In this document: positions 1 to 45,147 of the stretch, in pieces | How the letters are laid out: each line of letters starts with the position of its first letter | How positions within the stretch are numbered: position 1 is the first letter of the stretch | From: a virus | Reading direction: 5' to 3' (one strand) | DNA length: 45,147 bases | IMG/VR virus record: IMGVR_UViG_3300041935_000006 | Location: 1-45,147 of that record | The notes under the pieces: generated by a model | What the model was told of the DNA's origin: nothing | Databases searched by the model: none | Seen by the model: only the letters and a program-made list of their open reading frames with translations | Made by a program: the position numbers and the translations under genes

Positions 1-127
1 TTGATGATTCAGCACGCACAACCCCCCGCGCGCGCTGTTAGTGAGAGCTCTTCACGTCTGCATCGTCGTCGTCGTCGTCACTATCGTCGTCGTCGTCACC
101 CGGGCCGACCGGGTTCGGGTCGAACAG
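1..127. repeat. Terminal direct repeat, left copy (identical to 45021..45147)
   Basis: Read directly: bases 1-127 (ttgatgattcagcacgcaca...ggttcgggtcgaacag) recur base for base at 45021-45147. The unique sequence is therefore 45020 bp and the window closes on itself. The junction lies inside coding sequence. Confidence 0.95.
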
Positions 128-460
128 CCCGGCCTGCTTTTCGCTCGGCTCCATCGGCCGCGCGGTCACGAGCTCGTTCGTGTCGCCGCGAATGGTGAGC
201 ACCCGACGCGCGGTGTAGTCGCGCTTCTCGTACACGGGCACCTCACGCAACTCGATGCCGGTGCGCACCTCCTCGGCCAGATCTCCGATCACGCGAGAGC
301 TCGCCTTGAGGTCCTTGGAGATCCGCTGCGCCGTGAGCGAGCGCTCGAGCAAGAGACGTTGATTGTTGAGCACCTCGCGCGAGAGCTCGCTCGACTTGAG
401 GGCGCGCTCGGCGTCGGAGAGCTTGCACGGCAACTTTTTCGTGACGGGTGCACCGGACAT
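38..460 (-). CDS. Hypothetical coiled-coil protein with poly-Asp C-terminal tail
   Basis: ATG at 460 follows GAAAGG. Third-position G+C is high. The tail DDDDDSDDDDDD is encoded by (GTC)n runs at 64-97. On the closed circle its stop lies 18 nt upstream of the helicase start. Confidence 0.6.
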   Translation of the reverse strand: MSGAPVTKKLPCKLSDAERALKSSELSREVLNNQRLLLERSLTAQRISKDLKASSRVIGDLAEEVRTGIELREVPVYEKRDYTARRVLTIRGDTNELVTARPMEPSEKQAGLFDPNPVGPGDDDDDSDDDDDDADVKSSH

Positions 461-518
461 GACGAATCGAACCTTTCTCGGCCGGCAGTGCGGCCAAACG
501 ACACGAGAGCGCGCCGAG

Positions 519-1232
519 CTACTCGGCGAACAGCGAAAGGGTATGAGGCCGAGCGAGTCGCGCGGCGGCGACGTCGTATTGCTCGACGAGGGCCTCGGCG
601 CCGACCGAGTTGCGCAGCTCAGAGCGCGCGGCGATCAGCGTCGTGCCACCACCCGCGCACGGGTCGACGACAAGTTGACCGGGCCGCGAGTAGTCGCGCA
701 CGAGCGCTTTCATGGCGTCGGTGCGCTTGCCACCCATGACGACGCGATCACCCTTGCCGGTGAACACGTACGCACCCGGGAGCGTGCCCCACCCCATCAA
801 CACGCGCGGTCGCGCGACGACAAGCCAGCAAGACCAGCTCGACGGCCCATCGCCGAGCAACCGCACGCGAGAGCCTATCTCAACGAGCGGGAGAGGCGCG
901 AACACATAGCGATCAGCGCTCGCGAGCTCGTCGGCCCATGCCGCGGCGAGCGTGTGATCGGTAAGGCTCACGAACCAGCCGCGGGTGCGGTCTGAAAAGA
1001 ACCGCACGCACTCGCGCACGTCGTCGGGTGTCCACGCTGCATAGTTGATCGGCCGCGTGACCTTGCGGTGCCCGTACGCCGGATCGTGGTGCCCATCGTT
1101 GCGCGTGCCGTCGTCGTGACCTGAGTGTGTGCGCGCCGAGTAAGGTGCGTCGGTGATCAGCGCGTCGGGCTCGACGTCGGCGAGCACATCCTGATAGCGG
1201 CCGAGGCGCAGCTCGCACCGTAGCTCGGTCAT
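519..1232 (-). CDS. DNA methyltransferase (N6-adenine/N4-cytosine type, beta-class motif order)
   Basis: Catalytic motif ITDAPYS (DPPY-like) lies N-terminal to the AdoMet motif VVDPCAGGGTTLIAA. Its start overlaps the upstream gene stop as ATGA. Confidence 0.85.
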   Translation of the reverse strand: MTELRCELRLGRYQDVLADVEPDALITDAPYSARTHSGHDDGTRNDGHHDPAYGHRKVTRPINYAAWTPDDVRECVRFFSDRTRGWFVSLTDHTLAAAWADELASADRYVFAPLPLVEIGSRVRLLGDGPSSWSCWLVVARPRVLMGWGTLPGAYVFTGKGDRVVMGGKRTDAMKALVRDYSRPGQLVVDPCAGGGTTLIAARSELRNSVGAEALVEQYDVAAARLARPHTLSLFAE

Positions 1233-1636
1233 GCTTGCACCTTGCCGAACGTCGCGGTGACGAGCTCGCCGACCTTACGCTCAACCTGACCGTACTTCGT
1301 CGCGAGGCGTACCCACTCGGTGCCGGCCTTGTCGGTGTGCGTCTTTTTCGGCCGCGGCTCGGTGCGCAGCTGCGCGCTTACGCCGAGGCTCGTGAGGTAC
1401 GACCGCACCCGGCCGCGGTCGCTGATCTCGTACCCGCGAAAGCCCTCGATGGGTCGCCACTGCTCGTCGGCCGCGGCGAGTGCGTTGCTAATCGCATCGT
1501 CTGTGCTCACGACACCACCAAGTGCACGGGCCGCACCCATGACGGCACGAGCGGCACGAGCCATAGGACACCGCGTTGTGTGAGCCGCACGAATGCCGAC
1601 GCGCGGTGCACGCTCACGATCTGCGCGCCGCACCAT
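1229..1636 (-). CDS. NUMOD4-motif protein (homing-endonuclease-related, catalytic HNH motif not evident)
   Basis: WRPIEGFRGYEISDRGRVRS matches the NUMOD4 pattern. The downstream segment VGELVTATFG sits where HNH_3 proteins carry VHRLVaeaF, and the His is missing. The start is uncertain: third-position G+C is low before about 1540-1564. Confidence 0.55.
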   Translation of the reverse strand: MVRRADRERAPRVGIRAAHTTRCPMARAARAVMGAARALGGVVSTDDAISNALAAADEQWRPIEGFRGYEISDRGRVRSYLTSLGVSAQLRTEPRPKKTHTDKAGTEWVRLATKYGQVERKVGELVTATFGKVQA

Positions 1637-1679
1637 CGCGACTGCACCGCGTCGAACACCGCGACGGGATCGCCGACAC

Positions 1680-1919
1680 TCATCGGCGAGCTCGCGCAGC
1701 GCGACGGGGGCGAGCCTCGAGCGCCTCGGGCACGACGTCGCGAGTCATGCTCGAGATCGCAACCTTGCGGCCGGTCGCGGTGTGCAGTCGCGTCGCCGTC
1801 GCAAGGTTCGCGTTGCCCTCACACGCACGCGCAATCGCGGGCAACGAGACCTCGGCATTGACTGACAGTCGACTGCGCGAACCCCACCCCTCGCGCTCGA
1901 GCCATTCGGTTAGCCTCAT
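1680..1919 (-). CDS. Cro-like small HTH DNA-binding protein
   Basis: 79 aa with an HTH-like segment RLSVNAEVSLPAIARACEGNANLATATRL. It is divergent from a second HTH gene. Its ATG abuts the palindromic promoter/operator at 1917-1946. Confidence 0.7.
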   Translation of the reverse strand: MRLTEWLEREGWGSRSRLSVNAEVSLPAIARACEGNANLATATRLHTATGRKVAISSMTRDVVPEALEARPRRAARARR

Positions 1920-1946
1920 AACGCCGCGTTATAACGCCGCGTGGTG
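1917..1946. promoter_or_regulatory. Palindromic promoter/operator, site 1 (divergent switch)
   Basis: cATAACGCCGCGTTATAACGCCGCGTGGTG. Positions 1926-1946 are an exact 21-mer copy of 3000-3020. The central TTATAA (1929-1934) is itself palindromic. A TTGTAG -35-like hexamer lies 16 nt away on the minus strand. Confidence 0.6.
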
Positions 1947-2618
1947 CGCACTACAAGCGAGAGCGGTGATGCACACGCTGATCGCAAACTTGGTTGCAGG
2001 TTGCAGGCCCTCTCGCGCACACTCCCGCGCATGACCGCGCGACCGCGACCCACTGCACCCCGAAAAGCCAGAAAACCCGCGCAAAACGTAGCCCGACGCG
2101 AGCCCGTATGGCTGAAAGAGGGCGCGCGCTTGAAAGCGATCCTCGCCGAGCGCGGGATCTCTCACTCGGATTTCGCGCGTGAGTGCGGCGTCGCGTACCA
2201 CAACGTGTATCGCTGGACACGCGGGCACGAGTTCACCGAGGACAATCAAGGCATCGCCTGTGCAGTGATCGGCATCAAGCCCGAGGCACTCTCGACGACG
2301 CGGCGCAGTGCATTGCCGGCGATCGAGGCGGCGAAGCGCGCATTCCTCGCTGCGCGGCGACGCGAGCTCGAGGCCGGCGCCGTGCTCGAGGCGTTCAAAG
2401 CCAAGCCTATCGCCGCGTCGCTCACCGCGGCCGATTGGAGCGTGCTCAAGTCGATCCGATTCTTTGACGAGGCGTTGCGACCCTCGGTCGCATTCTTCGA
2501 GGCGGTCGCGTTCGCCCTCAAGGGTGCAATCCGCGTTGACGAGATTGCGGCCGTCGCCGCCGAAAACGCCGAGCTCGACCGCACCCTCGCCCACAAAGGA
2601 TCACTTCCACGTCGCTAG
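1941..2618 (+). CDS. XRE-family HTH regulator (CI-like candidate repressor)
   Basis: HTH segment GISHSDFARECGVAYHNVYRWTRG. GTG 1941 lies 7 nt after the TTATAA -10, the same geometry as site 2, which suggests a leaderless start. An alternative ATG at 2031 has no obvious RBS. Confidence 0.7.
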   Translation: MVRTTSESGDAHADRKLGCRLQALSRTLPRMTARPRPTAPRKARKPAQNVARREPVWLKEGARLKAILAERGISHSDFARECGVAYHNVYRWTRGHEFTEDNQGIACAVIGIKPEALSTTRRSALPAIEAAKRAFLAARRRELEAGAVLEAFKAKPIAASLTAADWSVLKSIRFFDEALRPSVAFFEAVAFALKGAIRVDEIAAVAAENAELDRTLAHKGSLPRR

Positions 2619-2733
2619 TCTCGTCATTTCGCGCACTTTTCGCGTTGCGAGATCCGGCTCACGCTCGTTAGGTTGCGATCTCTCGCGTGCCTCGTTCGGG
2701 TGGGAACGAATTGGCGCGCGAAGTGGGGGACGC

Positions 2734-2967
2734 ATGGCCGACACGTACAGCGCACGAGAGCTCGCACGCGCAGCGGGCTACCTGATCCGCACGATGCCCG
2801 AGGGTGCCGTCACCGAGCGCGTGTATCCGTTCGGCCGCGTGCTCGAGATCGGGCCGGCCGCGACCGACCTCGAGATCGTGCGACACGCTCGCCGTTTTCT
2901 CGCGGTGCCCGTATGCACGCGATCGCCCGGTAAAACAGGCGGATCCGCGAGCGGCGTCGCCCTCTGA
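2734..2967 (+). CDS. Hypothetical protein (77 aa)
   Basis: ATG 2734 follows a G-rich RBS (aagtggggga). Third-position G+C is high. Confidence 0.5.
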   Translation: MADTYSARELARAAGYLIRTMPEGAVTERVYPFGRVLEIGPAATDLEIVRHARRFLAVPVCTRSPGKTGGSASGVAL

Positions 2968-2979
2968 TCGTTAGTTCGC

Positions 2980-3020
2980 TTGCATGGCGTCACAACGCGG
3001 CGTTATAACGCCGCGTGGTG
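2980..3020 (+). promoter_or_regulatory. Promoter/operator, site 2 (TTGCAT-N17-TTATAA, leaderless geometry)
   Basis: TTGCAT at 2980-2985 and TTATAA at 3003-3008. The 30-bp near-perfect palindrome CACAACGCGGCGTTA|TAACGCCGCGTGGTG spans 2991-3020. The ORF start GTG 3015 is 7 nt after the -10. Confidence 0.6.
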
Positions 3021-3704
3021 AGTGCAGCGGCGCATAACGACAACGGGTCGATCTCGATCGACTGCGATGAGTGGATCTCCGACGAGCACGACAACCCGTC
3101 GTGCACGTGTGAGCCATGCGTGCGCGTGCGCTCGAGCGACGAGGCCGAGCGACGTCGACGCGAGGCTCTCACGTGCGGGGGGCTGTTCCCGCTCGCGCAC
3201 GTGTTGCTCGGTGAGGGGTGGGTCGACGAGGACGGCAAGGGGGGCAACGTGGTGGCGCAACCGAGACAAGATGCAGTCGACGTAAAGAGCTTGGCGCAAC
3301 GTGCGCTCGGCGATGTGTTTGAGCAGCTCGAGCGGGTCGGGAGCGCCGGCCGGGAGAAGTGCAGGCCGAGCTCGACGTACTACTCGGCGGCGACGCCCTA
3401 CCCGGCCGAGCACCGGATCAAGCGGCACGAGGCGGTCGAGCTCTTGCGCTGCGCCGAGAACGCTCTCGACTACGCACGGGTTCACCTCGACTACCTCGAG
3501 CGCGACGAGGTGCGGGTGCGCGGGGGGCGCGCCTCGTTGCAGGTCGAGCCCGGTGCGCGTGTGCTCGTCGCCGACGACGAGAACGCGAGCACATGGGCCG
3601 GCGTGCTCGTCGACCTCGGCGAGGGCGAGTCGTGCCGCGTGCGCGACGACGCCGGGCTACTGCACACGCTCGACGTGCGCGACCTGAGAGCGTTCGCCGT
3701 ATGA
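3015..3704 (+). CDS. Hypothetical protein (229 aa)
   Basis: The ORF has no internal Met. A GTG start at 3015 or 3018 lies inside the promoter palindrome. Its stop overlaps the next start as ATGA. Confidence 0.6.
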   Translation: MVSAAAHNDNGSISIDCDEWISDEHDNPSCTCEPCVRVRSSDEAERRRREALTCGGLFPLAHVLLGEGWVDEDGKGGNVVAQPRQDAVDVKSLAQRALGDVFEQLERVGSAGREKCRPSSTYYSAATPYPAEHRIKRHEAVELLRCAENALDYARVHLDYLERDEVRVRGGRASLQVEPGARVLVADDENASTWAGVLVDLGEGESCRVRDDAGLLHTLDVRDLRAFAV

Positions 3705-4042
3705 ATGCCGGCGAAATCGTTGCCCGGCTCGAGAAGATGCGAGGGCAAGATCCGACCATGGTGCAAGGGTCGCTCGCGATCCTGATCGGCGACGTGACGC
3801 GCTCGGCCGAGCTCGCGCTGTACCGCTCGCGACTGCACGACGATCGCACCGTTACGTGCAACACGACGACGCTCTCAATCTGTGACATCCGCGCGTGGTC
3901 GGTCGCCTCGCCGCCGCACCTTGCTTATCCCGAGGTCAACGGCCCGATCACGTACGTCTGGCTGCGCGACGTGCGCGACGCCTTTGTGCTGCGCGGCGAC
4001 TTCTCCGAAAAGCTGAGTGCAGCGGTCGAGGGGCAACCATGA
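3701..4042 (+). CDS. Hypothetical protein (113 aa)
   Basis: ATG 3701 forms an ATGA overlap with the upstream stop. Codon bias looks coding. Confidence 0.6.
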   Translation: MNAGEIVARLEKMRGQDPTMVQGSLAILIGDVTRSAELALYRSRLHDDRTVTCNTTTLSICDIRAWSVASPPHLAYPEVNGPITYVWLRDVRDAFVLRGDFSEKLSAAVEGQP

Positions 4043-4245
4043 TCATCTATTTCCATCGAGACGGGAGTCAGACCATCTCGCGCGCGCTGCGCCGGCTCTC
4101 GAACGAGGACCGTCACCTTGAGTACGACGCGGTGCGAATCGTCGAGGTGCGCGACGACGGCGCGATCATCGTCAAAAAGGACCGATACGGCACGGCAAAC
4201 CGCGAGCTCTTGAGCCCGCTCCCGCTCGGGAGGGTGACGGCGTGA
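4039..4245 (+). CDS. Hypothetical protein (68 aa)
   Basis: ATG 4039 forms an ATGA overlap with the upstream stop. Confidence 0.55.
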   Translation: MIIYFHRDGSQTISRALRRLSNEDRHLEYDAVRIVEVRDDGAIIVKKDRYGTANRELLSPLPLGRVTA

Positions 4246-4598
4246 GCGACCACATCATGACCCGGCGAGTGCCGCCGCTCGTGCTCGTCGAGAGCCCGTA
4301 CAAAGGCAACATCGCACTGAACGTGCGGTACGCGCGCCTCGCCATGCGCGACTGCTTTTTGCGCGGCGAATACCCGTTCGCCTCGCATCTTCTGTACACA
4401 CAGCTCGGCATCCTCGACGACGCGATCCTCGCCGAGCGCGAGCTCGGGATCGCGGCCGGCCTCGCGTGGGGGCGGCATGCCGAGGCGTCGATCGTGTACA
4501 CCGATTGCGGGATCAGCGAGGGCATGCGCTACGGCATCGAGACGGCAAAGGAAGCGGGCCGGCCCGTCGAGCTGCGCCGATTGAAGGGGTGGCCATGA
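4242..4598 (+). CDS. Nucleoside 2-deoxyribosyltransferase-like / DUF4406-like protein (tentative)
   Basis: The pattern VESPYKGN...N..YA......G.PFASHL....L.D....ER..G......W...A....VY.D.GIS.GM..GI..A resembles that small phage family. GTGA overlap at 4242. Confidence 0.4.
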   Translation: MSDHIMTRRVPPLVLVESPYKGNIALNVRYARLAMRDCFLRGEYPFASHLLYTQLGILDDAILAERELGIAAGLAWGRHAEASIVYTDCGISEGMRYGIETAKEAGRPVELRRLKGWP

Positions 4599-5488
4599 AA
4601 CAGACAGTCGTGAAGGTGCCCGGTATCTACTCGGGTCACGAGGTCGACTACAGCGAGATCGACGCGGTGAATCAGTCGACGCTCAAGGCGATCGCGAAGA
4701 GCCCGCTGCACTACCAACACGGGTTGACCCATCCCAAGAAACAAACCAACCCGATGCGCCTCGGCCTCGTCGCGCACACGGCCGTGCTCGAGCCGCACCG
4801 CCTCGACACCGACTTTGCTCTATGGGCACCGGTCGACGAGGACACCGGCGAGATCTTGAAGGATGACTTCAAGGGCAACGTGTACAAAGCGTTTGCCGCG
4901 CGCGCCGAGCTCGAGGGCCGCACCGTGATCAAGCAACGCGACCTCGACACCGCAAAGCGGATCGGCGAGGCGGTGCGCGGCAACGCTCTTGCGATGCGGT
5001 ACCTCAAGAAGGTGCGGGCCGAGCTGATCCTCGTTTGGCGTGATGAGGAAACCGGCATCGTCTGCAAAGCGCGCCTCGATGGTGTGTCGGAGTCGGTGCC
5101 CGACGTGCTCGTCGAGCTCAAGAGCGCGGTCGACGTCGCACCGTGGGCCTTCGAGTCGGCCTTTGCAAAGCGCATGTACCATCTACAGACCGCGTTCTAC
5201 TCCGATGGGTGGAAAGCCTGCACGGGCCGCGAGCTGCACGGCGGCAAGTGCATCGCCGTCGAGAACCTCGAGCCGCACGACGTGATCGTGTACGACCTCG
5301 CCGAGGTGACAGACATCGGGCGCGAGACGAAACGCGAGCTCCTCGGCAAGGTCGCCGAGTGCCGGCGCTCGGGTCTGTGGCTCGGTCAATCGCCGCTCGA
5401 GGAACGAACACTCAGATTGCCGAAGTGGCTCGAACCCGACGACGAGAACACGCTCGACGAGCTCGGCCTCGAGTATGCAAATGGGTGA
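4595..5488 (+). CDS. PD-(D/E)XK exonuclease (RecE/DUF3799-like)
   Basis: Nuclease core ARLDGVSESVPDVLVELKS followed by YHLQTAFY, as in phage PD-(D/E)XK exonucleases. ATGA overlap at 4595. Confidence 0.7.
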   Translation: MKQTVVKVPGIYSGHEVDYSEIDAVNQSTLKAIAKSPLHYQHGLTHPKKQTNPMRLGLVAHTAVLEPHRLDTDFALWAPVDEDTGEILKDDFKGNVYKAFAARAELEGRTVIKQRDLDTAKRIGEAVRGNALAMRYLKKVRAELILVWRDEETGIVCKARLDGVSESVPDVLVELKSAVDVAPWAFESAFAKRMYHLQTAFYSDGWKACTGRELHGGKCIAVENLEPHDVIVYDLAEVTDIGRETKRELLGKVAECRRSGLWLGQSPLEERTLRLPKWLEPDDENTLDELGLEYANG

Positions 5489-6002
5489 GGCGCCGCCACT
5501 CAAGAAACCGCTCGATTGGGACGAGCTTTACCCGGGCCGCTTCCTCAAGGCCGGGCAACTCGGCGAGCGCAAACCCACCCTCACGATCAAGGCCGTCGAG
5601 GTCGACCGGTTGCTCGACGACAAGGGGCAAGAGAAGGTCAAAGGGGTGATCACCTTCAACGAGATCGCCTATCAGCTCGCGCTCAACAAAACGAACGGGT
5701 TGTGTTTGCGCGAGATGTTCGGCCGCGAGCTCGAGAAGTGGGTCGGGCACAAGGTCACGCTGTACCGCTCGGCCGTCGAGTCGGGCTCGCGCAAGGGTGA
5801 GCCCGCGGTGCGTGTGTGGGGGTCACCCGAGCTCGAGGCCGACCGCACCGTCGAGGTCAAGTTGCCGCGCAAACGGCCTATGCAAATGGTCATGCACGCG
5901 GTGAAGGGCCGAGAGGCGACACAACGCGAGGTCGACAAACACCCGACCGAGGGCAAGGCGCCGGGCAACACGAGCGGCGGCGAGCCGCCCCCGTTCGGGT
6001 GA
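5475..6002 (+). CDS. Putative ssDNA-binding-like protein (weak call)
   Basis: It sits between two exonucleases. It has the OB-like core pattern seen in phage DUF669-type proteins (TLTIKAVE...ITFNE...LALNKTN...FG.E...W.G..V.LY). The C-terminal tip GGEPPPFG is reminiscent of SSB tips. Confidence 0.35.
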   Translation: MQMGEAPPLKKPLDWDELYPGRFLKAGQLGERKPTLTIKAVEVDRLLDDKGQEKVKGVITFNEIAYQLALNKTNGLCLREMFGRELEKWVGHKVTLYRSAVESGSRKGEPAVRVWGSPELEADRTVEVKLPRKRPMQMVMHAVKGREATQREVDKHPTEGKAPGNTSGGEPPPFG

Positions 6003-6005
6003 GTC

Positions 6006-6734
6006 GTGTTGCTCGACGGCTCGCTCGCGTGGTGGTCGTACCCGCTCGTCGTGCTCGATTTCGAGACAACAGGCGTCGACCCGGTTGAGTGCATGCCCGT
6101 GAGCGTCGCGGCAATCCGGCTCGAGCACGGCGTCGAGCGCGGCGCCTTTTACTCGTTGCTCCGACCGGGCATCCCGATCCCTCCCGGAGCGACCGAGATC
6201 CACGGCATCACCGACGAGCAGTGCGCCGACGCTCCCGAGCTCGTCGACGTGATGCCGCAACTGTTCGAGCTCGCGCAAGGGGCCGCACCCGTTGCCTACA
6301 ACGGGAGCACGTACGACAAGCTGATCTTTCACCGGTTCATCGTCGGGTCTGACTGTCCGCTTTTCGAGCCGGCGCAAGAATGGATCGACCCGCTCGTCAT
6401 GGTGCGCGCGATCGATCGGTACGTGCGCGGCACGGGCCGGCACAAGCTCTCGGCGACGTGCGAACGTTGGGGGGTGCCCATGCCCGAGGGCGCGGCGCAC
6501 AATGCGCTCGAGGACGTGCGGGCCGTCGGCCGGCTCCTCGCCGAGCTCGTGCGCATTGGCAAGGTGCGCGAGCACGTCACGTTGCGGCGACTGCTCGAGT
6601 ACACCGCGATCAAGCGGGCCGAGCAAAACGTGCAGTTCGAGAAGTACCTCGCGCGCGTCGCCGCCAAAGAGGCGCAAACCGCGATCGATTTCGACAAACT
6701 TGAGGGGGTCCCCGATGGCTGTAGATCTGACTGA
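6006..6734 (+). CDS. DnaQ-like 3'-5' exonuclease (DEDDh)
   Basis: ExoI VVLDFETTG, ExoII-like VAYNGSTYD and ExoIII HNALEDV motifs. Confidence 0.85.
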   Translation: MLLDGSLAWWSYPLVVLDFETTGVDPVECMPVSVAAIRLEHGVERGAFYSLLRPGIPIPPGATEIHGITDEQCADAPELVDVMPQLFELAQGAAPVAYNGSTYDKLIFHRFIVGSDCPLFEPAQEWIDPLVMVRAIDRYVRGTGRHKLSATCERWGVPMPEGAAHNALEDVRAVGRLLAELVRIGKVREHVTLRRLLEYTAIKRAEQNVQFEKYLARVAAKEAQTAIDFDKLEGVPDGCRSD

Positions 6735-7386
6735 AAGCGACACATTCACGGCGACGGTCACCGTGCCAGAGGCCGGCGACGATCGAAAGGCGGCGAGCGT
6801 CGTGCCTGCCTTTCAAGCGCTAGCGAACCGCACCAAAAATCTGAAAGGACGGCTCGACGACTTCCTCGCCGACCCGCACACGTGGGCCGACGATCAGCGG
6901 TTCGACGGTGACATCGTCCTCGGGCCGGGCTCGGTGATCCGTCACGTCGTCGCCGCGCAGCGCAAGATCGTGTTGCCGCTCAAACCTGACTTCCCGACCG
7001 TGAATTGGCTGTTCGCGCCGACACCGACGCCGGTATGGGCATGCGGCTCGACGGCCTCGGCGCTGTTCTTTACGATCGGGCCGGGCATCTTGCCCGACGG
7101 GGGGCAACTCGTGTCCGTGAGCGCGAGCGTCAACACCTCGATCGACGTGACGCTCAAACTCGCACGCATTACGTACGACACCTCGATCGCCGGGAGCGGC
7201 ACCGAGGGCACGGTGCTCACCGACTCGTTTTCGCCGACGGGCACCGAGGAGCACATACTCAACATCGGCGCGTTGAGCGCGCTGATCAACAACGCAACGA
7301 GTCTGTTCCGCATCGCGATCGATCCCGACGCGAGCGGGCCGGGCCTCGCGTTGCAGTGGATCGAGCTCGTCGTCACCGACCCTTGA
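6715..7386 (+). CDS. Tail-fibre-like protein encoded outside the tail module
   Basis: ATG 6715 follows GAGGGGG. The N-terminus ESDTFTATVTVPEAGDDRKAASVVPAFQALANRTKNLKGRLD matches the conserved phage fibre N-terminal pattern (P.dGD..a.sv....LAnRT.yLk). Confidence 0.5.
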   Translation: MAVDLTESDTFTATVTVPEAGDDRKAASVVPAFQALANRTKNLKGRLDDFLADPHTWADDQRFDGDIVLGPGSVIRHVVAAQRKIVLPLKPDFPTVNWLFAPTPTPVWACGSTASALFFTIGPGILPDGGQLVSVSASVNTSIDVTLKLARITYDTSIAGSGTEGTVLTDSFSPTGTEEHILNIGALSALINNATSLFRIAIDPDASGPGLALQWIELVVTDP

Positions 7387-7948
7387 GCCCGGCGTGCTCG
7401 AGGAACATCGCCGCGCACTCGGGATCGGAGAGGAACGGGCCGAACACGCGGCGAAACTTCTCGCCCAGATACTTGGCTTTGAACTCGGGCACGACGGCGC
7501 ACTCGGCCTCGAAAGCGTAGTCGTACCCTTGCTCGATCACGATCTCGCACATCGAGGCGTACACGCTCACGAGCGCGGCGAACGCCTGCCACTCGCCGTG
7601 CGGCATCTTGAGGCCGACGTGATAGATCCGGGTCTGCACCGCGCGCATTTCGGCGATCTCTGAGAGCATCTCGGCGACGCGCTGCGCCGGCAACGGGGGC
7701 TCGCGAGGCGTTGCGCGGGTGCGCATGGGGCGGCCGAAGGTGCGACTCGGGTTGCGGCTGATCGCCCTACCCTCGTCGGGTGTCACCTCGCCGAGCTCGT
7801 GCAGGCGAGAGGCGAGCTCGGGCTCGGCGAATGCAGGGCACCGGCAGAAGGCGCCGGGCACGTCTCGAGCGAACACGCACGTATCAGGGAAGTGAAGGTG
7901 TCGCGTGTGCCCGCACGCGGCGCACGTGTCTTGCGGATCATGTGTCAT
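7373..7948 (-). CDS. Zinc-ribbon-motif protein (191 aa)
   Basis: ATG 7948 forms an ATGA overlap with the upstream stop. N-terminal motif CAACGHTRHLH...CRCPAF. The C-terminal domain has no recognisable motif. Confidence 0.6.
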   Translation of the reverse strand: MTHDPQDTCAACGHTRHLHFPDTCVFARDVPGAFCRCPAFAEPELASRLHELGEVTPDEGRAISRNPSRTFGRPMRTRATPREPPLPAQRVAEMLSEIAEMRAVQTRIYHVGLKMPHGEWQAFAALVSVYASMCEIVIEQGYDYAFEAECAVVPEFKAKYLGEKFRRVFGPFLSDPECAAMFLEHAGLKGR

Positions 7949-37177: not shown

Positions 37178-38853
37178 CGCTTTTCCCAGATCGCCGCACC
37201 GGCGTACGGGTCGAACGGATCGCGCGCGTTGCGGGTCTGATAGTCAGACTGCACGACGCTATCGGTTGAGGTGCTCTCGCGTAGTGAGAGCGGCTCCCAT
37301 GCTGACAGTGCGAGCGCGTCGAGCCGATCGGGTGAGCGGCCGAGGATCTTGCGCAGCGTCTCTTTCGCCGTGACCTTGAGTTTGCCGTCGGCGCGTTGAT
37401 GCCACTCGGGCGCGTGCAGCTCTTTCGCAAGTTTGGTGTCCTCGGGAATCGCACCCCCGGCGTCGAACCAGGCCGAGAGCGAGGCGGCGAGAGCGTCGCG
37501 CATCAAGTGGTAGATCTCGGGTTGCCGCAAGCTCTTGTCGCTCGAGCTGATCCCGACGACCTCGAACGAGCCCTCGTTGTCGTCGGCGTAGTTGCGCAGT
37601 GCGGTGTACACCTTCGAGCCGATCGAGCCGCCGCGGTCGACGACGACGACGGGTGTCTCGCGCGGTGTCTTGAGGCGCGCGATCAGCTGCACCACTTCGA
37701 GCAAGTGCCCGGCCGCGTCGAGCCCGCGACGCACGACGAGCTCGAGCAACTTGAGCCCGCGGCGAGGCGCAAACACGATGTCATCGCCCGAGCCCTTCTC
37801 ACCCGCGGGATCCACGCCGATGTACAAGCGGCCCGACGCCGGTGCCTCGCTCCATCGCTCCTCGGCTTGCGCGATGGTGTGCAGCGAGAAGATCTTGCCG
37901 GCCTCGTGCTCGGCAAACTCGCCGAGGACACGCACCTTGTACAGGGCCGACTTGACCCCCCACTCCTCGGCCTTTTCCTCGACCCACTCGCGCGTCGCGA
38001 GGCCCGGGATCAAGCGCTTGCCGCTCACTACGTTCGGCGTCGACGCGCTCGAGACCGTCAGGCAGAAGTAGAAGCGGGCCTTGCTATTGAACGCGTCGTA
38101 AAACTCGCCGTCGTTCTTTGTGGGGTTGCCGAACAGCGCGACGCGCGCCGAGCCAGCACGGTTGCCCTCGATCGCCTCGTAGATCTCGCGCGCGACGCCG
38201 CTCGCCTCGTCGACGATGTACAGAACGTTTTCGCCGCTGATACCCGCGACCGCCTCGGCCTGTTTCGCGGTGAACCCGACGATCTCGCGAAACGACTGAT
38301 CGTCTGACTTGAGGCCGGTGCGTGCGAGCTCGCCGAGGTCGCCGTCGATTAGCGACGAGTGAGGGCACGGCCGCGTGATGCGCGCGTTCGGGTTGCGGAT
38401 CAGCTCGGCCTTGCACTCGATGCACCGACCAGAGCGCGCGTGCATCATGCGCAGCTCGCGCCACAAGATCTCGTCGACCTGCCTCGACGTCGTGCTCGTC
38501 ATGACGACGCGGGCCGCGTCGAAGCTGCAATAAAACCAGAGAGCGAGGAGCGCGGCCGAGGCCGACTTGCCGATCTTGTGCCCGGATTTCACGGCGACGC
38601 GCATGTGGTCGCGTACACCCTCGAGAATCGCGATCTGTGCCGACCACGGGTCGACGCCTGCGATCTCGCGAGCGAACCGCACCGGCTCCTCGCGGTACAT
38701 CGGGCTCGGGAACGTGACGCCGAACGACGCGTGCAGCGCGGGAAAGAACGACGCCGCGAAGTCGCCGGCATACGTGAGCGGCCCCCCGACAAACTTGAGG
38801 GGCCGGCCGGGCCTACGCTTCGCTATCTCGCTCGAGGCGGTGCTCGTCGCCAT
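37174..38853 (-). CDS. terL: Terminase large subunit
   Basis: Walker A VKSGHKIGKSA and Walker B VLYIVDEAS, with a C-terminal RNase-H-like nuclease region (IGVDPAG...). 559 aa. Confidence 0.9.
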   Translation of the reverse strand: MATSTASSEIAKRRPGRPLKFVGGPLTYAGDFAASFFPALHASFGVTFPSPMYREEPVRFAREIAGVDPWSAQIAILEGVRDHMRVAVKSGHKIGKSASAALLALWFYCSFDAARVVMTSTTSRQVDEILWRELRMMHARSGRCIECKAELIRNPNARITRPCPHSSLIDGDLGELARTGLKSDDQSFREIVGFTAKQAEAVAGISGENVLYIVDEASGVAREIYEAIEGNRAGSARVALFGNPTKNDGEFYDAFNSKARFYFCLTVSSASTPNVVSGKRLIPGLATREWVEEKAEEWGVKSALYKVRVLGEFAEHEAGKIFSLHTIAQAEERWSEAPASGRLYIGVDPAGEKGSGDDIVFAPRRGLKLLELVVRRGLDAAGHLLEVVQLIARLKTPRETPVVVVDRGGSIGSKVYTALRNYADDNEGSFEVVGISSSDKSLRQPEIYHLMRDALAASLSAWFDAGGAIPEDTKLAKELHAPEWHQRADGKLKVTAKETLRKILGRSPDRLDALALSAWEPLSLRESTSTDSVVQSDYQTRNARDPFDPYAGAAIWEKR

Positions 38854-38868: not shown

Positions 38869-39234
38869 CTAACGCGCGCGTGCGCCGGACAGTACCTGAG
38901 GGATCAGCTCGCTCGCCGCGTCGACGTGGTGTCGGAGCGAGCGGTATGCCGCGACGAGGCGCCGCACTTGATCGGGTGTCCATCCTCGCGAGAACGCGTC
39001 GAGGGCCTCGTCGGTGAGGCACTCGAGCTCGAGGCCGTACAAGATCGAGCCGACGAGCTCGGTGTTACGCGCGCGGTGTGTGGCGAACGCGGCGGCGAGC
39101 GTCGCCGCGAGGTCGGGGTGCTCGTCCTCGGGCTTGGCGCCGTCGAGGATCGCGAGCATGGCGAGCTTTGCGTACTGTCGGCCGAGCTCGACCTCGACCT
39201 CGTTCGGGGTGCCAACCGTCACGAGATACCCCAC
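38869..39234 (-). CDS. Hypothetical protein (117-121 aa)
   Basis: GTG 39234, or GTG 39222 as a GTGA overlap with the upstream stop. Confidence 0.5.
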   Translation of the reverse strand: MGYLVTVGTPNEVEVELGRQYAKLAMLAILDGAKPEDEHPDLAATLAAAFATHRARNTELVGSILYGLELECLTDEALDAFSRGWTPDQVRRLVAAYRSLRHHVDAASELIPQVLSGARAR

Positions 39235-39479
39235 CCGCGCATCGAGCTCTTGATCGTGCGGATCTGCCTCCCGGCCTCGGCGACTTGAGCGCGCGCGTTG
39301 CCGAGCTTGCGCGACTCGGCCGGCGAGCGGATCCGTACGTTGAGCTCGCGCAGCGCCGTCAGTATGGGGGCCGTCGAGACTTTGAACGCCTCGGCGAGCT
39401 CGACGATCGTCTCGCCCTTGCGGTAGCGACTTGCCACCTGATCGCGCTGATCCTCGGTCAAAACACGCTTACCACTCAT
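39219..39479 (-). CDS. HTH DNA-binding protein, first gene after repeat array D (small-terminase-like or regulator)
   Basis: ATG 39479 follows AAAGGAA. HTH segment GETIVELAEAFKVSTAPILTALRE. Confidence 0.6.
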   Translation of the reverse strand: MSGKRVLTEDQRDQVASRYRKGETIVELAEAFKVSTAPILTALRELNVRIRSPAESRKLGNARAQVAEAGRQIRTIKSSMRGWGIS

Positions 39480-39500
39480 GGGGGCCGGTTCCTTTCACGG

Positions 39501-39540
39501 TGACATGTTCACATGTGTACACGTGCACATGTACACGTTA
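39501..39540. repeat. ACATGT-core repeat array D (8-bp units)
   Basis: ACATGTTC ACATGTGT ACACGTGC ACATGTAC with cores at 39503, 39511, 39519 (ACACGT) and 39527. It lies between the stop of 39538..40260 and the start of 39219..39479. Confidence 0.8.
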
Positions 39541-40353: not shown

Positions 40354-40974
40354 CTACCTCAATGATTGCGCATGCTTGGCCCAACATTCGGGGTGGTAGT
40401 TGGCACCCTCGCCGAGGCCGGGCTCGTCACACACGCGGCACCGCTTCCGACGTTTCGCACGCGCAGCCATGATCGATGCCTGGTACTCCTCGGAGGCCCA
40501 TGCCTTTCGCATCGCACACGATCGACACAGAACTGTCGCCTCGCACGGTGAGCGCTTCGGACTGAGCACGGCAGCGCACTCCGCGCACGACCGCGCTTTG
40601 TGCGCCTGCACGAGCGACTCGCTTGCGATTGGCTCGCGCGGTTTCACCGCAACGCTATTGAGGTTCGCTGCAACGTATCCGTGCAGTGCGGCGAGCTCGG
40701 CGAGAGACGCATTGCTCTTGAGCGTGTTTGCTCGACTCGAGATCACGGCGACGTTCCCGCGCACATACCCGAGCTCGGGAACGATGCGATCGAGCGTCGC
40801 CGAGTTGTCAGAGAACGGCCCGGCCTCGAGTTTGAGTGCAACGCCGAGGACCGGGCAACGCTCGGGCACTACCACGTCGGTTGATTGTAGGTCGAATGGC
40901 ACCCCCCGTGCGCGCGCACGCTTACGCGCTAGCGACACGAGACGTTGAGCGATCAACTCGCGATAACGGTTCAT
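40354..40974 (-). CDS. HNH / endonuclease VII-type nuclease with C-terminal zinc ribbons
   Basis: CPVLGVAL......SATLDRIVPELGYVRGNVAVISSRANTLKSN matches the endonuclease-VII-like HNH pattern. The C-terminus carries CAEC...CRSC and CRVC...HPEC. Confidence 0.75.
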   Translation of the reverse strand: MNRYRELIAQRLVSLARKRARARGVPFDLQSTDVVVPERCPVLGVALKLEAGPFSDNSATLDRIVPELGYVRGNVAVISSRANTLKSNASLAELAALHGYVAANLNSVAVKPREPIASESLVQAHKARSCAECAAVLSPKRSPCEATVLCRSCAMRKAWASEEYQASIMAARAKRRKRCRVCDEPGLGEGANYHPECWAKHAQSLR

Positions 40975-41002
40975 GTAGGGGGTGGCCGTCACGACACGCG
41001 GG

Positions 41003-41946: not shown

Positions 41947-42235
41947 GATGATCCGTCTCCGATTGCGCCGAGCGCGACGTGCGCTCGGGAACATTGCCTC
42001 GCACCGAGTCGATCGCCGCGCGCAGATCGAGCGCGTACAGGATCGAGGTGCGCCGTATCCCAAACTCGCGATCGAGGTGCGCGTCGTCGAGGCGCCACCG
42101 ACGCTCGAGATCCTCGAACACCTGCAAGAGCTCCTCGCGGTAGTCGACGATGTACTCGACGCGGCCCGCGAACGTGCGCACGCGGCAAAGCTGCTCGCCG
42201 AACACGTACTCGCGATGCGTTGCGCGTCGTTTCAT
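41834..42235 (-). CDS. Hypothetical protein (133 aa), 3' end overlaps next gene
   Basis: ATG 42235 forms an ATGA overlap with the upstream stop, which supports translation. The last 113 nt overlap 41518..41946 in another frame. Confidence 0.4.
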   Translation of the reverse strand: MKRRATHREYVFGEQLCRVRTFAGRVEYIVDYREELLQVFEDLERRWRLDDAHLDREFGIRRTSILYALDLRAAIDSVRGNVPERTSRSAQSETDHHEQAIGNRKEGTRAAHERRWWQWWRSAGREKGAQASR

Positions 42236-42435
42236 TCGCGCACCGGGGGCGGTGTCAACGCGTCGTGCGCGTATTGGATGCGAGCCTTGAGCGTCGCGGC
42301 TCGCTCGTCGACGGCGGCGAGGCCGATCGGGAGCTCGAGCGCATCGAGCAGGATGCGCAGCTCCTCGCGCGTGAAGGTGAGCATCGCCTTATGCGTGTGC
42401 ATCGTCTGCACTGACTTGCCGATCTTGTCGCTCAC
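42232..42435 (-). CDS. Hypothetical protein (67 aa)
   Basis: GTG 42435 forms a GTGA overlap with the RuvC-like stop. Confidence 0.5.
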   Translation of the reverse strand: MSDKIGKSVQTMHTHKAMLTFTREELRILLDALELPIGLAAVDERAATLKARIQYAHDALTPPPVRE

Positions 42436-43058
42436 TTGCCGCCCCCGAACAGATCGCCCTGTTTGACCGCTGCGCGTTTGGCGCGGCCCTCGATGCGAGT
42501 CTTCATGCGCTCGGCGTCGTACCGTGCGAGCCCGTCGATCGACGCGAACACGGTGAGCGCAACGCCCTCGGCATGGTTGTCGTCGATCGGCTCCTCGCCG
42601 AGGTAAGCGCGAGCCCAGTCGACGGCCGCCTTCTTGACGTCGCCTCGAGTCGTGCCGTGCACGCGTGATCGCCATGTCGAGGGCTGCACCTCGAGCGCGT
42701 GCGAGGGATGCAGGCCGGCGACGTAAAGCATCCCGAGCCAGATGCCGTAATTCTTACCCATGCCGATCAGCGATGCGTTCGAGCGCTCGGGTGCAGCTTG
42801 CCGCGGGCCTTTGCGTTGCGTGGTGTGGTCCGCGTTCGTGAGACGCGTCGCCGGCATGTGGTCATGCTGCTCGAACATCACGAACAGCGCCGAGGCATCG
42901 CCGCACACGTACTCGAGCGCGAGCTGCACGACGGCAACGCGGTCGGCGACGTTCTTTGCGAGGCCGTGCCGAACCACCCGGCCGCGCTCGGGAGCGATGC
43001 CCCACCCGGTTTTGTTGCCCTGATCGAGGCCGAGCACGACGCGTCGGAGCTCGGTCAC
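42432..43058 (-). CDS. RuvC-like Holliday junction resolvase (RNase H fold)
   Basis: VLGLDQGNKTGWG (first catalytic Asp), FEQHD and PIDDNHAEGVAL (C-terminal acidic pair). Confidence 0.75.
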   Translation of the reverse strand: MTELRRVVLGLDQGNKTGWGIAPERGRVVRHGLAKNVADRVAVVQLALEYVCGDASALFVMFEQHDHMPATRLTNADHTTQRKGPRQAAPERSNASLIGMGKNYGIWLGMLYVAGLHPSHALEVQPSTWRSRVHGTTRGDVKKAAVDWARAYLGEEPIDDNHAEGVALTVFASIDGLARYDAERMKTRIEGRAKRAAVKQGDLFGGGK

Positions 43059-43073: not shown

Positions 43074-43087
43074 GCAACGCGCGTTGC
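43074..43087. promoter_or_regulatory. 14-bp perfect palindrome GCAACGCGCGTTGC upstream of the resolvase gene
   Basis: Read directly. It lies 16 nt upstream of ATG 43058. Its core AACGCGCGTT is one base shorter than the AACGC(G/C)GCGTT core of the three promoter/operator sites. Confidence 0.3.
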
Positions 43088-43306
43088 GGCGGGTGGTGGT
43101 TCCCGTTGCACCCGCTCGAGCCCCTCGCGGACCCCCCCAAAAACGCCGATCGAGGTCCCTCGCGCTCCCGGCCCGCGGCGGCCCCTAGACGGCGCTCGAG
43201 CTGCGTGCGGCCGATCGCTCCCGAACCAGGCCCGACCGCCGCTCTCTACCCCCCGCCTCGTGCGCTGGGCATTTGTTCGACTCTGCTTTCGGCACGGTAG
43301 CCCCTC

Positions 43307-43429
43307 GGTCCCTACCCTACGCAGCACAGGTCCAGAGGTCCCTCTCCCTAAAGGAGAGAGGGACCTCAGGGACCTCTGTGCGGGTCCAGGTCCGGGACCT
43401 CGATGGACCTCGATGGACCTCGCGGACCT
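43307..43429. repeat. GGACCT/AGGTCC iteron array with long inverted repeat (candidate replication origin)
   Basis: AGGTCC at 43328, 43336 and 43388. GGACCT at 43361, 43370, 43395, 43405, 43415 and 43424. Variants at 43307 and 43382. The last four are spaced 10, 10 and 9 bp apart. The hairpin 43335-43346/43356-43367 has 12 contiguous bp. Confidence 0.8.
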
Positions 43430-43470
43430 CGGCGAATCGCTTGCACCGGGTGACAAACAGCCATGCATCC

Positions 43471-45039
43471 TCATGACGGCACTCCCGGTTGAGCAACCCG
43501 ATAGACCCCGTCGACGCGCACGAGCACCCCCTCTTCGACGAGCTCGCGGGTGATCGAGTTGCCGTCGCGCTTGCGCATGCCGGCGCCGCGAATGATGGCG
43601 GCGAGCGTGCGGCACTCCTCACGCGCGCACGCGGCGAGGGCTCGCTCGCGCAGCTGCGTTGACTTGGCTCGCTCGCGGTCGACGTCGTCATGCTCGGGCT
43701 TCTCGATCTCGCGCCAAGAGAGCGACGAGAAGTCGAGCCGCGTGCGGATCTCGGGTTTGGCACTGCCGAGGCGGTTTTTCGCGACCTCGAGATCGACGAC
43801 GCCGACCTCGCCGGTGACCGAGCGCAACCCGATCAGCAAGTGCGCGGCGTACTCGATAGCCCGCGACTCGGCGCCGGCACCGAGCGCGCTGATATCCTGA
43901 TCGCGCTTGCCCGTGCGATACCCCGCGCGGCTCATCTCCGAAATCGCGACGACGAGCGTGCCGCGGCGGCAAATGCGCTTGATCACCCGCACCGTCGCTT
44001 CGATCTGCTCGCGGGTGGTCTCGTACTGCAACGCCTCGCGACACGGCACGGTTTGGATCGAGTCCACGAACATCACGCGCGGCCGGTCGCCTGCGCCCTC
44101 GAGCAAGAGCCGCTCGGCATCCTCGAGAAACAGCTCGTCGTCGTACGGGTCGATCACGACGATCGCGCGAGCTCGGGAGCTGCGCGCGAAGGTCTCACGT
44201 CGACCGGGGTCGACACCCTCGAGCGCCTCGCGGTCGTGCCCGTCGAGCTGACCGAGCCGCGTGACAATCGCCTCGCGCGACTCGTCGGCCGCGAGGAATG
44301 CAACCGCGCACCCGGCCCGCTCCCATCCATCGGCGAGCCATGCGCACAGATTCGTCTTACTCGCACCCGGCGCACCGAGCAGTGCGACAAAGCGGCCGAG
44401 AGGCAGACCCCCACGCGTCGCCGCGTCGAGCGCCGGCAACCCGGTCGGCAAACGCGTGCCGACGGCGCCGAGTGCGAGTGCGAGCTCAGAGAGCGTCGGG
44501 ATGCGCGCGACAGACTCGTCACGGTCGACGGCCTCAAGGGCTGCGCGCGCACCATCGAGCGCGGCGAGGTACCGCGGGAGCTCGTCACTCCCGGCCTTGC
44601 CGGCGACGAGCGCGGCGGCATCGTGCACCGCGCGTCGACGAGCGAGCCGGCGCAATCGACGCGTGTCGGTCTGATCGCTCGGCATGGTCTCGGTGACCGC
44701 GAGCAAATACTCATCGCCGCCGACGGCACCGAGCCGACCCGCGTCGTGCAGCGCGTCGTGCAACGCGGCCGTGTCGTGAGGTTTGCCCTCCGACGCGAGC
44801 TTGCACAGAACCGCGAAGATCTGGCCGTTCGAGTGCGAGTAAAAGTCGTCGGGCACGACCTTTGACGCGAGCGCGAACCCGGGCAAGAGCATCGCCGCGC
44901 ACAACACCGCGCGCTCGAGCACGAGGTCGTGCAGCTCGAGCCGATCCTCGTGCCGCAAGCTCGCCGCTCGGCCGTTGCTTGGCGTCGGTTTCACGGCCCG
45001 CACCGGCCCCCCACTCGTGTTTGATGATTCAGCACGCAC
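43471..45039 (-). CDS. DnaB-family replicative helicase with winged-helix-like C-terminal extension
   Basis: DnaB N-domain pattern ERAVLCAAMLLP...DFYSHSNGQIFAVL. Walker A LLGAPGASKT and Walker B VMFVDS. The C-terminal 70 aa (RTLAAIIRGAGMRKRDGNSITRELVEEGVLVRVDGVYRV) look like a wHTH. The GTG start at 45039 is uncertain. Confidence 0.8.
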   Translation of the reverse strand: MRAESSNTSGGPVRAVKPTPSNGRAASLRHEDRLELHDLVLERAVLCAAMLLPGFALASKVVPDDFYSHSNGQIFAVLCKLASEGKPHDTAALHDALHDAGRLGAVGGDEYLLAVTETMPSDQTDTRRLRRLARRRAVHDAAALVAGKAGSDELPRYLAALDGARAALEAVDRDESVARIPTLSELALALGAVGTRLPTGLPALDAATRGGLPLGRFVALLGAPGASKTNLCAWLADGWERAGCAVAFLAADESREAIVTRLGQLDGHDREALEGVDPGRRETFARSSRARAIVVIDPYDDELFLEDAERLLLEGAGDRPRVMFVDSIQTVPCREALQYETTREQIEATVRVIKRICRRGTLVVAISEMSRAGYRTGKRDQDISALGAGAESRAIEYAAHLLIGLRSVTGEVGVVDLEVAKNRLGSAKPEIRTRLDFSSLSWREIEKPEHDDVDRERAKSTQLRERALAACAREECRTLAAIIRGAGMRKRDGNSITRELVEEGVLVRVDGVYRVAQPGVPS

Positions 45040-45147
45040 AACCCCCCGCGCGCGCTGTTAGTGAGAGCTCTTCACGTCTGCATCGTCGTCGTCGTCGTCA
45101 CTATCGTCGTCGTCGTCACCCGGGCCGACCGGGTTCGGGTCGAACAG
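45021..45147. repeat. Terminal direct repeat, right copy (identical to 1..127)
   Basis: See the left copy. Exact 127-bp identity. Confidence 0.95.

Follow-up and report, generated by a model that had tools for sequence, protein, structure and literature searches.

A family of uncultured soil myoviruses with a ParA/RHH partition cassette and no recognised integrase: probable phage-plasmids

The DNA analysed here (the window) is the entire IMG/VR record IMGVR_UViG_3300041935_000006, a virus genome of 45,147 nt that is classed as having direct terminal repeats. It encodes a complete set of virion, packaging and lysis genes, from terminase through to endolysin, together with a small ParA ATPase, a ribbon-helix-helix (RHH) partner protein and dispersed arrays of 8-bp repeats. 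We propose that it represents a family of phage-plasmids, in which a complete temperate myovirus persists as a low-copy circular plasmid and not by integration. We put the probability of this proposal at about 60%.

The genome closes as a circle. CheckV gives a completeness of 100% for the record, and its two ends overlap.

1-127 and 45021-45147, no strand: exact 127-bp direct terminal repeat, an assembly overlap

A repeat of this kind is the signature of a circular path closed by the assembler at k=127, and the unique genome length is 45,020 bp. A separate Logan assembly of the probable source run, a soil metagenome, contains a single 45,050-bp contig (word depth 35) which is a circular permutation of the record, broken at about 3087-3116. 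Two assemblies with different break points indicate that the 45,020-bp genome closes on itself as a circular or circularly permuted molecule, and that its ends are not joined to variable host DNA. Contigs of three runs compared with positions 1-20000 confirmed the circularity and revealed variants; the loose ends and joints seen at 90% likeness in this comparison were rejected as GC-rich cross-matches. As to the question raised when the sequence was read without database searches (the sequence-only reading), whether this DNA occurs as a separate circle or flanked by host DNA, this genome and a relative both assemble as separate circles without host flanks.

The partition cassette consists of two overlapping genes.

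9695-10378, plus strand: small ParA partition ATPase, 227 aa (NF041546 2.2e-40, PF01656 1.5e-11)
10365-10721, plus strand: RHH partner, 118 aa (PF07878, RHH_5, 1.1e-4, below cut-off), its open reading frame (ORF) overlapping the parA stop

ParA opens the second plus-strand unit of the genome (9695-15603). It covers the ParA_partition profile NF041546 end to end, it has a deviant Walker A motif (GGKGGLGKST, residues 9-18) and it lacks an N-terminal helix-turn-helix (HTH)/DNA-binding domain. It has no homologue in 50,697 GenBank phage records, and a search of IMG/VR gave no relative. In PLSDB it is most similar to the ParA proteins of two plasmids, pSa001 of Sandaracinus amylolyticus (38.9%) and pMF1 of Myxococcus fulvus (32.9%), and each of these two parA genes is followed by a gene for a small protein. 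The RHH partner comprises a basic N-terminal tail and a putative C-terminal RHH segment, recognised by sub-threshold matches (E 0.64 against the Mnt repressor). The C-terminal segment aligns to pMF1 ParB and to the pSa001 partner, each at 2e-6 in pairwise comparison. The ParA/RHH cassette named in the sequence-only reading is upheld by the profile match, the Walker A motif and these alignments. The pMF1 system has been characterised experimentally: ParAB, with ParC, stabilises plasmids, and the small ParB represses the operon and binds to 8-bp iterons (AGATGTCT) found at six scattered places on the plasmid. Its authors class it as type Ib (PMC3235114).

A model of the complex between ParA and its partner gave an ipSAE interface score of 0.68, compared with 0.00 for the best control; 58 of 80 solved complexes attain this mark, as do two of 110 mismatched pairs. 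Contact agreement between runs was at least 53% and the model confidence (pLDDT) of the partner at least 62. The interface comprises residues 22-42 of the partner tail, and the N-terminal tail is thus predicted to contact ParA. ParA-ParB peptide complexes have already been solved, and the pass may in part reflect likeness to them.

The genome contains four arrays of 8-bp repeats, one of them degenerate.

9628-9673, plus strand: array A, six 8-bp-phased units, GTGAACAT-like with ACATGT cores, stopping 22 bp short of the parA start
15581-15625, no strand: array B, five perfect ACATGT units of 8 bp, where the plus-strand operon and the late unit (endolysin gene) converge
39496-39536, no strand: array C, 8-bp-phased ACATGT/ACACGT units, between a 240-aa gene and the head of the packaging/late genes
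11672-11719, plus strand: degenerate fourth array, GTGAACATGACGACAA x2.4, where an 89-aa gene begins

Eleven of the 14 ACATGT hexamers fall in three intergenic clusters with exact 8-bp phasing (3.9 hexamers are expected genome-wide). From its position, array A is a candidate centromere and par operator. In a near-identical variant (run X2) array B has one 8-bp unit fewer, at 15604; close strains thus differ in their number of repeats.

At least four diverged genomes, recovered from different samples, retain the cassette, and their ParA proteins are 38-90% identical. Relative A (Logan SRR31724236 contig, 46,024 bp) and relative B (SRR10083316 contig, 44,667 bp) were both tiled completely, and B closes as a circle through a terminal overlap of 30 bp. 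Between 45 and 47 of the 70 genome proteins have matches in them, at 28-71% identity and in the same order, and in both ParA is followed by a small partner at the position seen in the genome. Relative C (Ga0190271 contig) is 75-90% identical in nucleotides over the aligned pieces, has a ParA of 90% identity and carries the cassette. The cassette is also present in variants from two runs of another study, where most contig pieces are 95-99% identical. At least three other phages from other samples have the full layout of the genome, including ParA and the RHH partner. A 47-kb contig (L044) with a ParA 33% identical was rejected as a relative, since it has nothing else in common with the genome.

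The repeat unit is not the same throughout the family. In relatives B and C the ACATGT unit recurs, in arrays before parA and at the convergent junction, and in B also in one that precedes the late unit. The hexamer ACATGT is absent from relative A, which has 8-bp-phased GTGCAC arrays: one upstream of parA, one before the late unit and others at two more sites. One array of A lies at a place comparable to the fourth array (11672-11719). The predicted DNA-reading beta-strand of the RHH partner is RRATFYL in the genome and in B, and RRLAVYI in A. The beta-strand thus co-varies with the repeat unit, which indicates, on comparison of these sequences, that it is the RHH partner that binds the arrays and that selection acts on the system.

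No integration enzyme was found. Pfam searches (E≤0.01) of all 70 called genes and of alternative long ORFs gave no recombinase or transposase. Searches of the whole record in all six frames at E≤1 gave no match to the tyrosine recombinase (PF00589), serine recombinase (PF00239 and PF07508), rve DDE integrase (PF00665) and telomere resolvase (PF16684) profiles, all five of which rang in control genomes. The Mu transposase core (PF02914, DDE_2) was also negative at E≤1; it rang in no control genome either, so this result is uninformative alone. A tblastn search with the integrases of the two nearest relatives gave nothing below E=0.9, and no decayed integrase remnant is therefore present. The unexplained ORFs of recombinase size (3015-3704, 6715-7386 and 12931-14007) have no recombinase or catalytic signatures. 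The absence of tyrosine and serine recombinases, DDE transposases and protelomerases, as claimed from the sequence, is thus borne out by the profile searches of the ORFs and of all six frames; these negatives cover the known families, and a wholly novel recombinase would be beyond their reach.

Phages with related virion genes do have integrases. In contig G001:C311 (42.6 kb), 26 structural genes are syntenic with those of the genome, at 35-68% amino acid identity, and the helicase and RuvC-like genes are shared as well. This contig encodes a tyrosine integrase (PF00589 1.7e-13) in its plus-strand accessory region and lacks homologues of ParA and of the RHH partner. In G002:C216, an 88.8-kb contig of a 'delta proteobacterium' metagenome-assembled genome (MAG), an integrase gene (63657-64709) lies directly beside a transfer-messenger RNA (tmRNA) gene (63245-63590), and homologous terminase, portal and capsid genes begin 16 kb past the integrase. 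By this layout G002:C216 contains a classic integrated prophage, and the tmRNA gene is likely to be the attB of the integrase-bearing branch. The tag encoded by this tmRNA is ANDNALALAA. A full-length related prophage is found within a 123-kb contig (G197:C31). A decayed one, with truncated capsid and baseplate genes, is found at G382:C133 7067-14364, in an 11-Mb genome of the same phylum as G002. The integrases of the close structural relatives and the integrated state of the distant ones point to a temperate lineage.

Neither relative A nor relative B has a recombinase family in precomputed Pfam tables over the whole contigs or by tblastn, and integrase was thus not found in any of the three complete genomes (the genome, A and B). 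The IMG/VR relatives of the large terminase (L001-L004) are structural fragments only. One group of phages therefore has an integrase and no ParA, and the other has the par cassette and no integrase. Judged by gene content, integrase and partition cassette alternate among phages that share virion and replication genes. The same alternation has been documented for cluster A mycobacteriophages, some of which, for example RedRock, have no integrase, carry a parABS system with 8-bp repeats and replicate extrachromosomally (PMC7157519).

The genome contains elements of a possible regulatory switch, which lie between the minus-strand unit and the early operon.

1680-1919, minus strand: divergent Cro-like HTH gene, 79 aa, first gene of the minus-strand unit, no Pfam match
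2031-2618, plus strand: Cro/C1-type HTH regulator, candidate repressor (PF13443, HTH_26, 22.2 bits, cut-off 22)
1918-1942, no strand: operator-like tandem/palindromic element, ATAACGCCGCGT x2, between the two HTH genes
2990-3016, no strand: second copy of the operator-like element, upstream of the early operon

The ORF of the HTH regulator is open from 1941, and its probable start is the ATG at 2031, which aligns with the homologues in A and B; the product matches phrog_4779, a transcriptional regulator. The 79-aa gene is kept at the same position in both relatives (42-52% identity), and the core GCGTTATAACGC is conserved at both equivalent operator-like sites in A and B. A scan of the switch region for consensus promoters and terminators gave nothing. 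These elements fit a repressor/antirepressor switch, a fit that falls short of proof. The CI/Cro-like switch of the sequence-only reading thus stands in part: the HTH match, the conserved divergent ORF and the palindromes are consistent with it, whereas no S24 domain was found and the match is borderline.

The phage carries genes and elements for its own replication and DNA processing.

43471-45003, minus strand: DnaB-family replicative helicase (PF00772 4.9e-13, PF06745 1.5e-10)
43307-43431, no strand: iteron cluster, candidate origin, adjoining the helicase gene
42432-43058, minus strand: RuvC-fold Holliday-junction resolvase, 208 aa (AlphaFold pLDDT 81.2)
40354-40992, minus strand: endonuclease VII-like HNH endonuclease (phrog_3322 6.8e-31; phrog_1035, endonuclease VII, 1.4e-11)
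12514-12930, plus strand: non-coding stretch of 417 bp (frame plot), followed at 12931-14007 by a 358-aa family-specific protein

The helicase matches the phage_DnaB family TIGR03600 at 3.3e-13, far below its cut-off. Ten of the 13 GGACCT/AGGTCC hexamers of the genome lie at 43328-43429, around a hairpin with the loop CCTAAAGG. Relatives A (42155-42740) and B (12110-12500) have the same iteron architecture and the same loop, with GGAACC as the unit instead. The cluster is a plausible replication origin, and the change of unit from GGACCT to GGAACC is presumably a second case of repeat co-variation, with the initiator or the helicase.

The resolvase is identified by its predicted structure. The top 20 Foldseek matches in the PDB are all RuvC or its plant homologue MOC1, and RuvC proteins of Deinococcus, Thermus, Pseudomonas and E. 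coli match the model at 2.7e-7 to 3.8e-5. The motifs G-x-D-Q-G, F-E-x-H and D-D-x-x-A-E are conserved, and D12, E63, D159 and D160 are invariant in four homologues. The Pfam RuvC profile (PF02075) is negative on this protein, and the RuvC-like resolvase recognised in the sequence-only reading is therefore confirmed by structure and not by profile.

The 358-aa protein has homologues in relatives A and B, and its ESM Atlas features match HTH_36-bearing clusters at 0.93. It is predicted to be all-helical with long disordered stretches. The predicted fold is too uncertain to use (pLDDT 57), there is no PDB match and the Foldseek matches are noise; a first metagenome scan with this protein family gave no match. 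A Rep-like role for the protein, and with it a prophage replication module at 12514-14007, is only a lead. Between the par operon and the 358-aa gene, relatives A (L033:8534-9463) and B (L034:1230-2159) carry a 309-aa AcrVA2-like gene (PF26125), and at this position the genome has an unrelated 191-aa gene and the 417-bp non-coding stretch.

The virion genes form the larger part of a long minus-strand unit, which begins in the divergent region at about 1.9 kb and continues across the junction as far as 15626. Its order is small HTH gene, NUMOD4-like gene, methylase, DnaB-family helicase, iterons, RuvC-fold gene and endonuclease VII-like gene, followed by the packaging, head, tail and lysis genes.

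15626-39479, minus strand: late unit (Pfam, PHROGs and phage-homologue matches)
39219-39479, minus strand: small HTH protein
37174-38853, minus strand: large terminase
35526-36926, minus strand: Mu-type portal (Portal_Mu, PF06074, 1.7e-41)
32209-33264, minus strand: gpT capsid (PF10124 1.3e-10)
31686-32177, minus strand: Gp36/DUF1320 connector (PF07030 1.6e-5)

The late unit also encodes an Amidase_2 endolysin, tail fibres, Baseplate_J, tape measure, tube, DUF2586 sheath, head-tail connectors including the Mu Gp36 type, a scaffold and an S49 protease that accompanies the Mu-type head genes. A contractile tail is indicated by Baseplate_J and by the 481-aa DUF2586 protein, whose few phage homologues, among them that of Myxococcus phage Mx4, are annotated as tail sheath. 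The description of this phage as a myovirus with a Mu-like head (portal, gpT capsid and DUF1320-like connector) was thus correct. Portal matches on plasmids are distant (identity at most 29%). One of them, 28% identical, is on the 56,913-bp Deinococcus aetherius plasmid NZ_AP026564.1, which may be another, unrelated phage-plasmid with Mu-like head genes.

The remaining genes are early or accessory.

3015-7386, plus strand: early operon with a cysteine-rich 229-aa protein, DUF7768, two exonucleases and a 223-aa fibre-like protein
3015-3704, plus strand: cysteine-rich protein, 229 aa, with a beta-rich C-terminus, first gene of the early operon
4589-5488, plus strand: PDDEXK exonuclease, early operon
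6006-6734, plus strand: DnaQ-like exonuclease, early operon
519-1232, minus strand: N6/N4 DNA methyltransferase (PF01555 7.1e-8)
1229-1540, minus strand: NUMOD4 homing-endonuclease-like gene (PF07463 9.1e-10), overlapping the methylase gene start

The ESM Atlas gave no usable match for the 229-aa protein. The last gene of the early operon (6715-7386, plus strand, 223 aa) encodes an N-terminal motif, VPEPGDDRTAASV..FQALANRT, that is also found in the tail-fibre region of C311, and its product resembles a fibre-like protein whose gene lies apart from the late unit. Between the early operon and parA (7373-9395) is an island of six small genes on the minus strand. Several of them encode cysteine-rich proteins, and one product (7945-8301) has a signal-peptide-like N-terminus. 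In the X2 variant part of the island is replaced, and the relatives also differ here; the island is a candidate moron or lysogenic-conversion region. PHROGs searches with 30 non-structural proteins gave little besides the endonuclease VII-like match and generic DNA-binding families, and PDB sequence searches gave nothing usable for six proteins. A codon-bias gene call gave the 70 genes; no tRNA was found by a tRNA scan of the window and no Rfam family by an Rfam search. Megablast against GenBank phages left half of the genome without a match, the helicase had only fragmentary matches to phages, and the best identity of the large terminase to a phage protein was 31%, so there is no close cultured relative.

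The host is probably a member of the Myxococcota. Terminase relatives were found in four of the 401 genomes sampled from the phylum of the delta-proteobacterial MAG; these four genomes are 4-11 Mb in size and their fetched contigs have 67-72% G+C. Together with the affinities of ParA and the sheath match to Mx4, these relatives point to Myxococcota. Actinomycetota was considered as the host phylum and rejected, since the terminase occurs there in one of 401 genomes, which is the MAG itself. The sequence-only reading had named a high-G+C bacterium; the G+C of the genome (0.65-0.69 throughout) is consistent with this, and the narrowing to Myxococcota is a deduction from relatives.

We suggest that the system would work as follows. 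The RHH protein (10365-10721) would bind as dimers to the ACATGT array that precedes parA and to the arrays at two or three sites elsewhere, and its basic N-terminal tail would contact ParA (9695-10378) and stimulate its ATPase. ParA would keep the prophage copies spaced out along the nucleoid, with one passing to each daughter cell. Binding of the RHH protein at the arrays would autoregulate the par operon. The HTH protein (2031-2618) is the likely repressor and would act at the operators at 1918-1942 and 2990-3016. Because arrays lie at the head and at the convergent end of the late unit, the RHH protein may also silence the late genes, or help to keep them quiet. A stronger version of this idea is that this is the first recognised phage-plasmid family of Myxococcota, in which one RHH protein both segregates the prophage and silences the bracketed 24-kb late/lysis unit through dispersed centromere/silencer arrays. 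We offer it tentatively and think it rather less probable than its opposite. As part of the same tentative idea, the specificity of the RHH protein would already have diverged within the family, between ACATGT and GTGCAC units.

A number of points weigh against the phage-plasmid proposal. The genome is known from metagenome contigs alone, from which we infer the plasmid state, and a virion genome that is circularly permuted or terminally redundant would be just as likely to assemble as a circle. Neither a plasmid-type Rep protein nor a site-specific multimer-resolution system (Cre/lox-like) was found in the genome. The repressor call is a borderline HTH match, and an S24 autocleavage/peptidase domain was not found. 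ParA scores 138 bits against NF041546, below the 180-bit equivalog cut-off, and the Pfam match of the RHH partner (PF07878, 1.1e-4) is below the gathering score. The absence of a Mu-type transposase rests on the rve and Pfam sweeps, the PF02914 search lacking a control that rang. The host assignment is indirect, and the closest relative contig was binned with an Actinomycetota MAG. Of the checks suggested in the sequence-only reading, those that could be run all favoured it. The extrachromosomal prophage maintained by partition, as put forward there, is therefore supported in its circles, its lack of an integrase and a conserved par cassette homologous to a validated system, and not in the plasmid state itself, the repressor, the Rep protein or multimer resolution.

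The alternative that survives best is that the phage forms no stable lysogens. It would then be virulent or limited to a transient carrier state, and the cassette would position replicating genomes or switch early and late transcription, with the RHH protein acting as a global regulator like omega of pSM19035, which binds several promoters (summarised in PMC3235114). The arrays at the head and convergent end of the late unit, and not at parA alone, would suit such a regulator. A headful-packaged lytic phage would give a circular assembly too, many lytic phages have their own helicase, nucleases and resolvases as this one does, and no S24-type repressor, plasmid Rep or multimer-resolution system was found. 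We nevertheless consider this alternative unlikely. Close structural relatives have integrases and more distant ones are integrated in chromosomes, the divergent HTH gene pair with its shared operators is conserved, and it is ParA itself that is conserved across diverged family members, not the DNA-binding partner alone. This ParA is of plasmid type and is missing from the 50,697 GenBank phages.

Less probable again is a temperate phage that does integrate, by an unrecognised recombinase or by host XerCD at a dif-like site, with the par cassette as an accessory. About half of the non-structural ORFs have no family assignment, and the 358-aa (12931-14007) and 229-aa (3015-3704) ORFs are unexplained, which leaves some room for such an enzyme. 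The profile searches in six frames at E≤1 were nevertheless empty while the controls rang, and the ORFs of suitable size lack catalytic signatures. In addition, no integrated copy of the par family was found, every assembly that could be closed is a free circle, and the cassette sits in the plus-strand accessory region where the closest relative has its integrase. That the phage is a Mu-like transposable phage with a missed transposase is very improbable: the portal, capsid and Gp36 connector are of Mu type and the PF02914 search had no positive control, but neither a MuA-type DDE transposase nor MuB was found (no rve, PF00665, DDE_2, PF02914, or other DDE match in any frame and no transposase in the Pfam sweeps), the genome closes to a circle without variable host DNA at its ends, the DnaB-type helicase and iteron origin indicate non-transpositional replication, and relatives with the same head genes use tyrosine integrases.

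Persistence as a phage-plasmid, which we prefer to these alternatives, has parallels in several known systems. Cluster A mycobacteriophages such as RedRock and Alma (Wetzel et al. 2020, PMC7157519) resemble the present family in having an integrase or a partition cassette within one group, centromeres of 8-bp direct repeats, a non-coding region or Rep-like gene beside the par genes and an extrachromosomal prophage, which in the present family is proposed. They differ in being siphoviruses of Actinobacteria with ParA and an HTH-type ParB, whereas the present genome is a myovirus with a Mu-type head, a type Ib ParA and an RHH partner; the late-operon head is among the three or four dispersed places that carry its arrays, and there is no sequence similarity.

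The pMF1 parCAB and pSa001 parA loci contain the closest ParA homologues (33-39%) and a small downstream partner that aligns with the RHH domain. pMF1 also shares the 8-bp iterons dispersed over the replicon, the type Ib layout and autoregulation. It differs in its extra upstream ParC, which its ParA needs and which has no equivalent upstream of parA in the present genome, in its repeat unit (AGATGTCT as against ACATGTGA-like) and in its carrier, a plasmid and not a phage. The ParF/ParG system of TP228 and the delta/omega system of pSM19035 likewise combine a small Walker ATPase with an RHH protein, which is dimeric, carries a flexible tail at its N-terminus and binds short phased repeats upstream of the operon; the likeness is one of architecture, with no detectable sequence match to the present proteins.

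P1, N15 and SSU5 (Pfeifer et al. 2021, PMC7969092) are also temperate, do not integrate into the chromosome and have plasmid partition and replication functions. The gene content they share with the present genome is limited to generic families. Cre/lox and a separate RepA replicon are features of P1, and a protelomerase is one of N15; functions of neither kind were found in the present genome. Mu, B3 and BcepMu have the same portal (PF06074), gpT capsid (PF10124), Gp36 connector and morphogenesis gene order, whereas the present genome lacks MuA/MuB and host-DNA ends and has a helicase/iteron-based replication.

Phage-plasmids are a recognised and undersampled way of life. The lifestyle proposed here is already known from P1, N15 and the parABS mycobacteriophages, and what is new for it is the phage lineage, together with the probable myxobacterial host. 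To our knowledge, almost all known phage-plasmids come from Enterobacteria, Firmicutes, Vibrio or mycobacteria, and only two plasmids are known in Myxococcota. Myxobacterial genetic tools depend on a single plasmid, pMF1.

The analysis defines an uncultured soil family of at least four genomes with ParA and an RHH partner, and comparison with the integrase-bearing sister phages reveals a clean alternation of integration and partition. The interest of the family lies in the probable host phylum, in this alternation and in the co-varying RHH protein and arrays, the latter bracketing the late genes. The co-variation of the RHH beta-strand with the 8-bp unit provides a ready-made specificity pair for studies of centromere recognition and incompatibility. 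If the host is myxobacterial, these phages would be natural episomes for a phylum in which autonomously replicating plasmids are nearly unknown.

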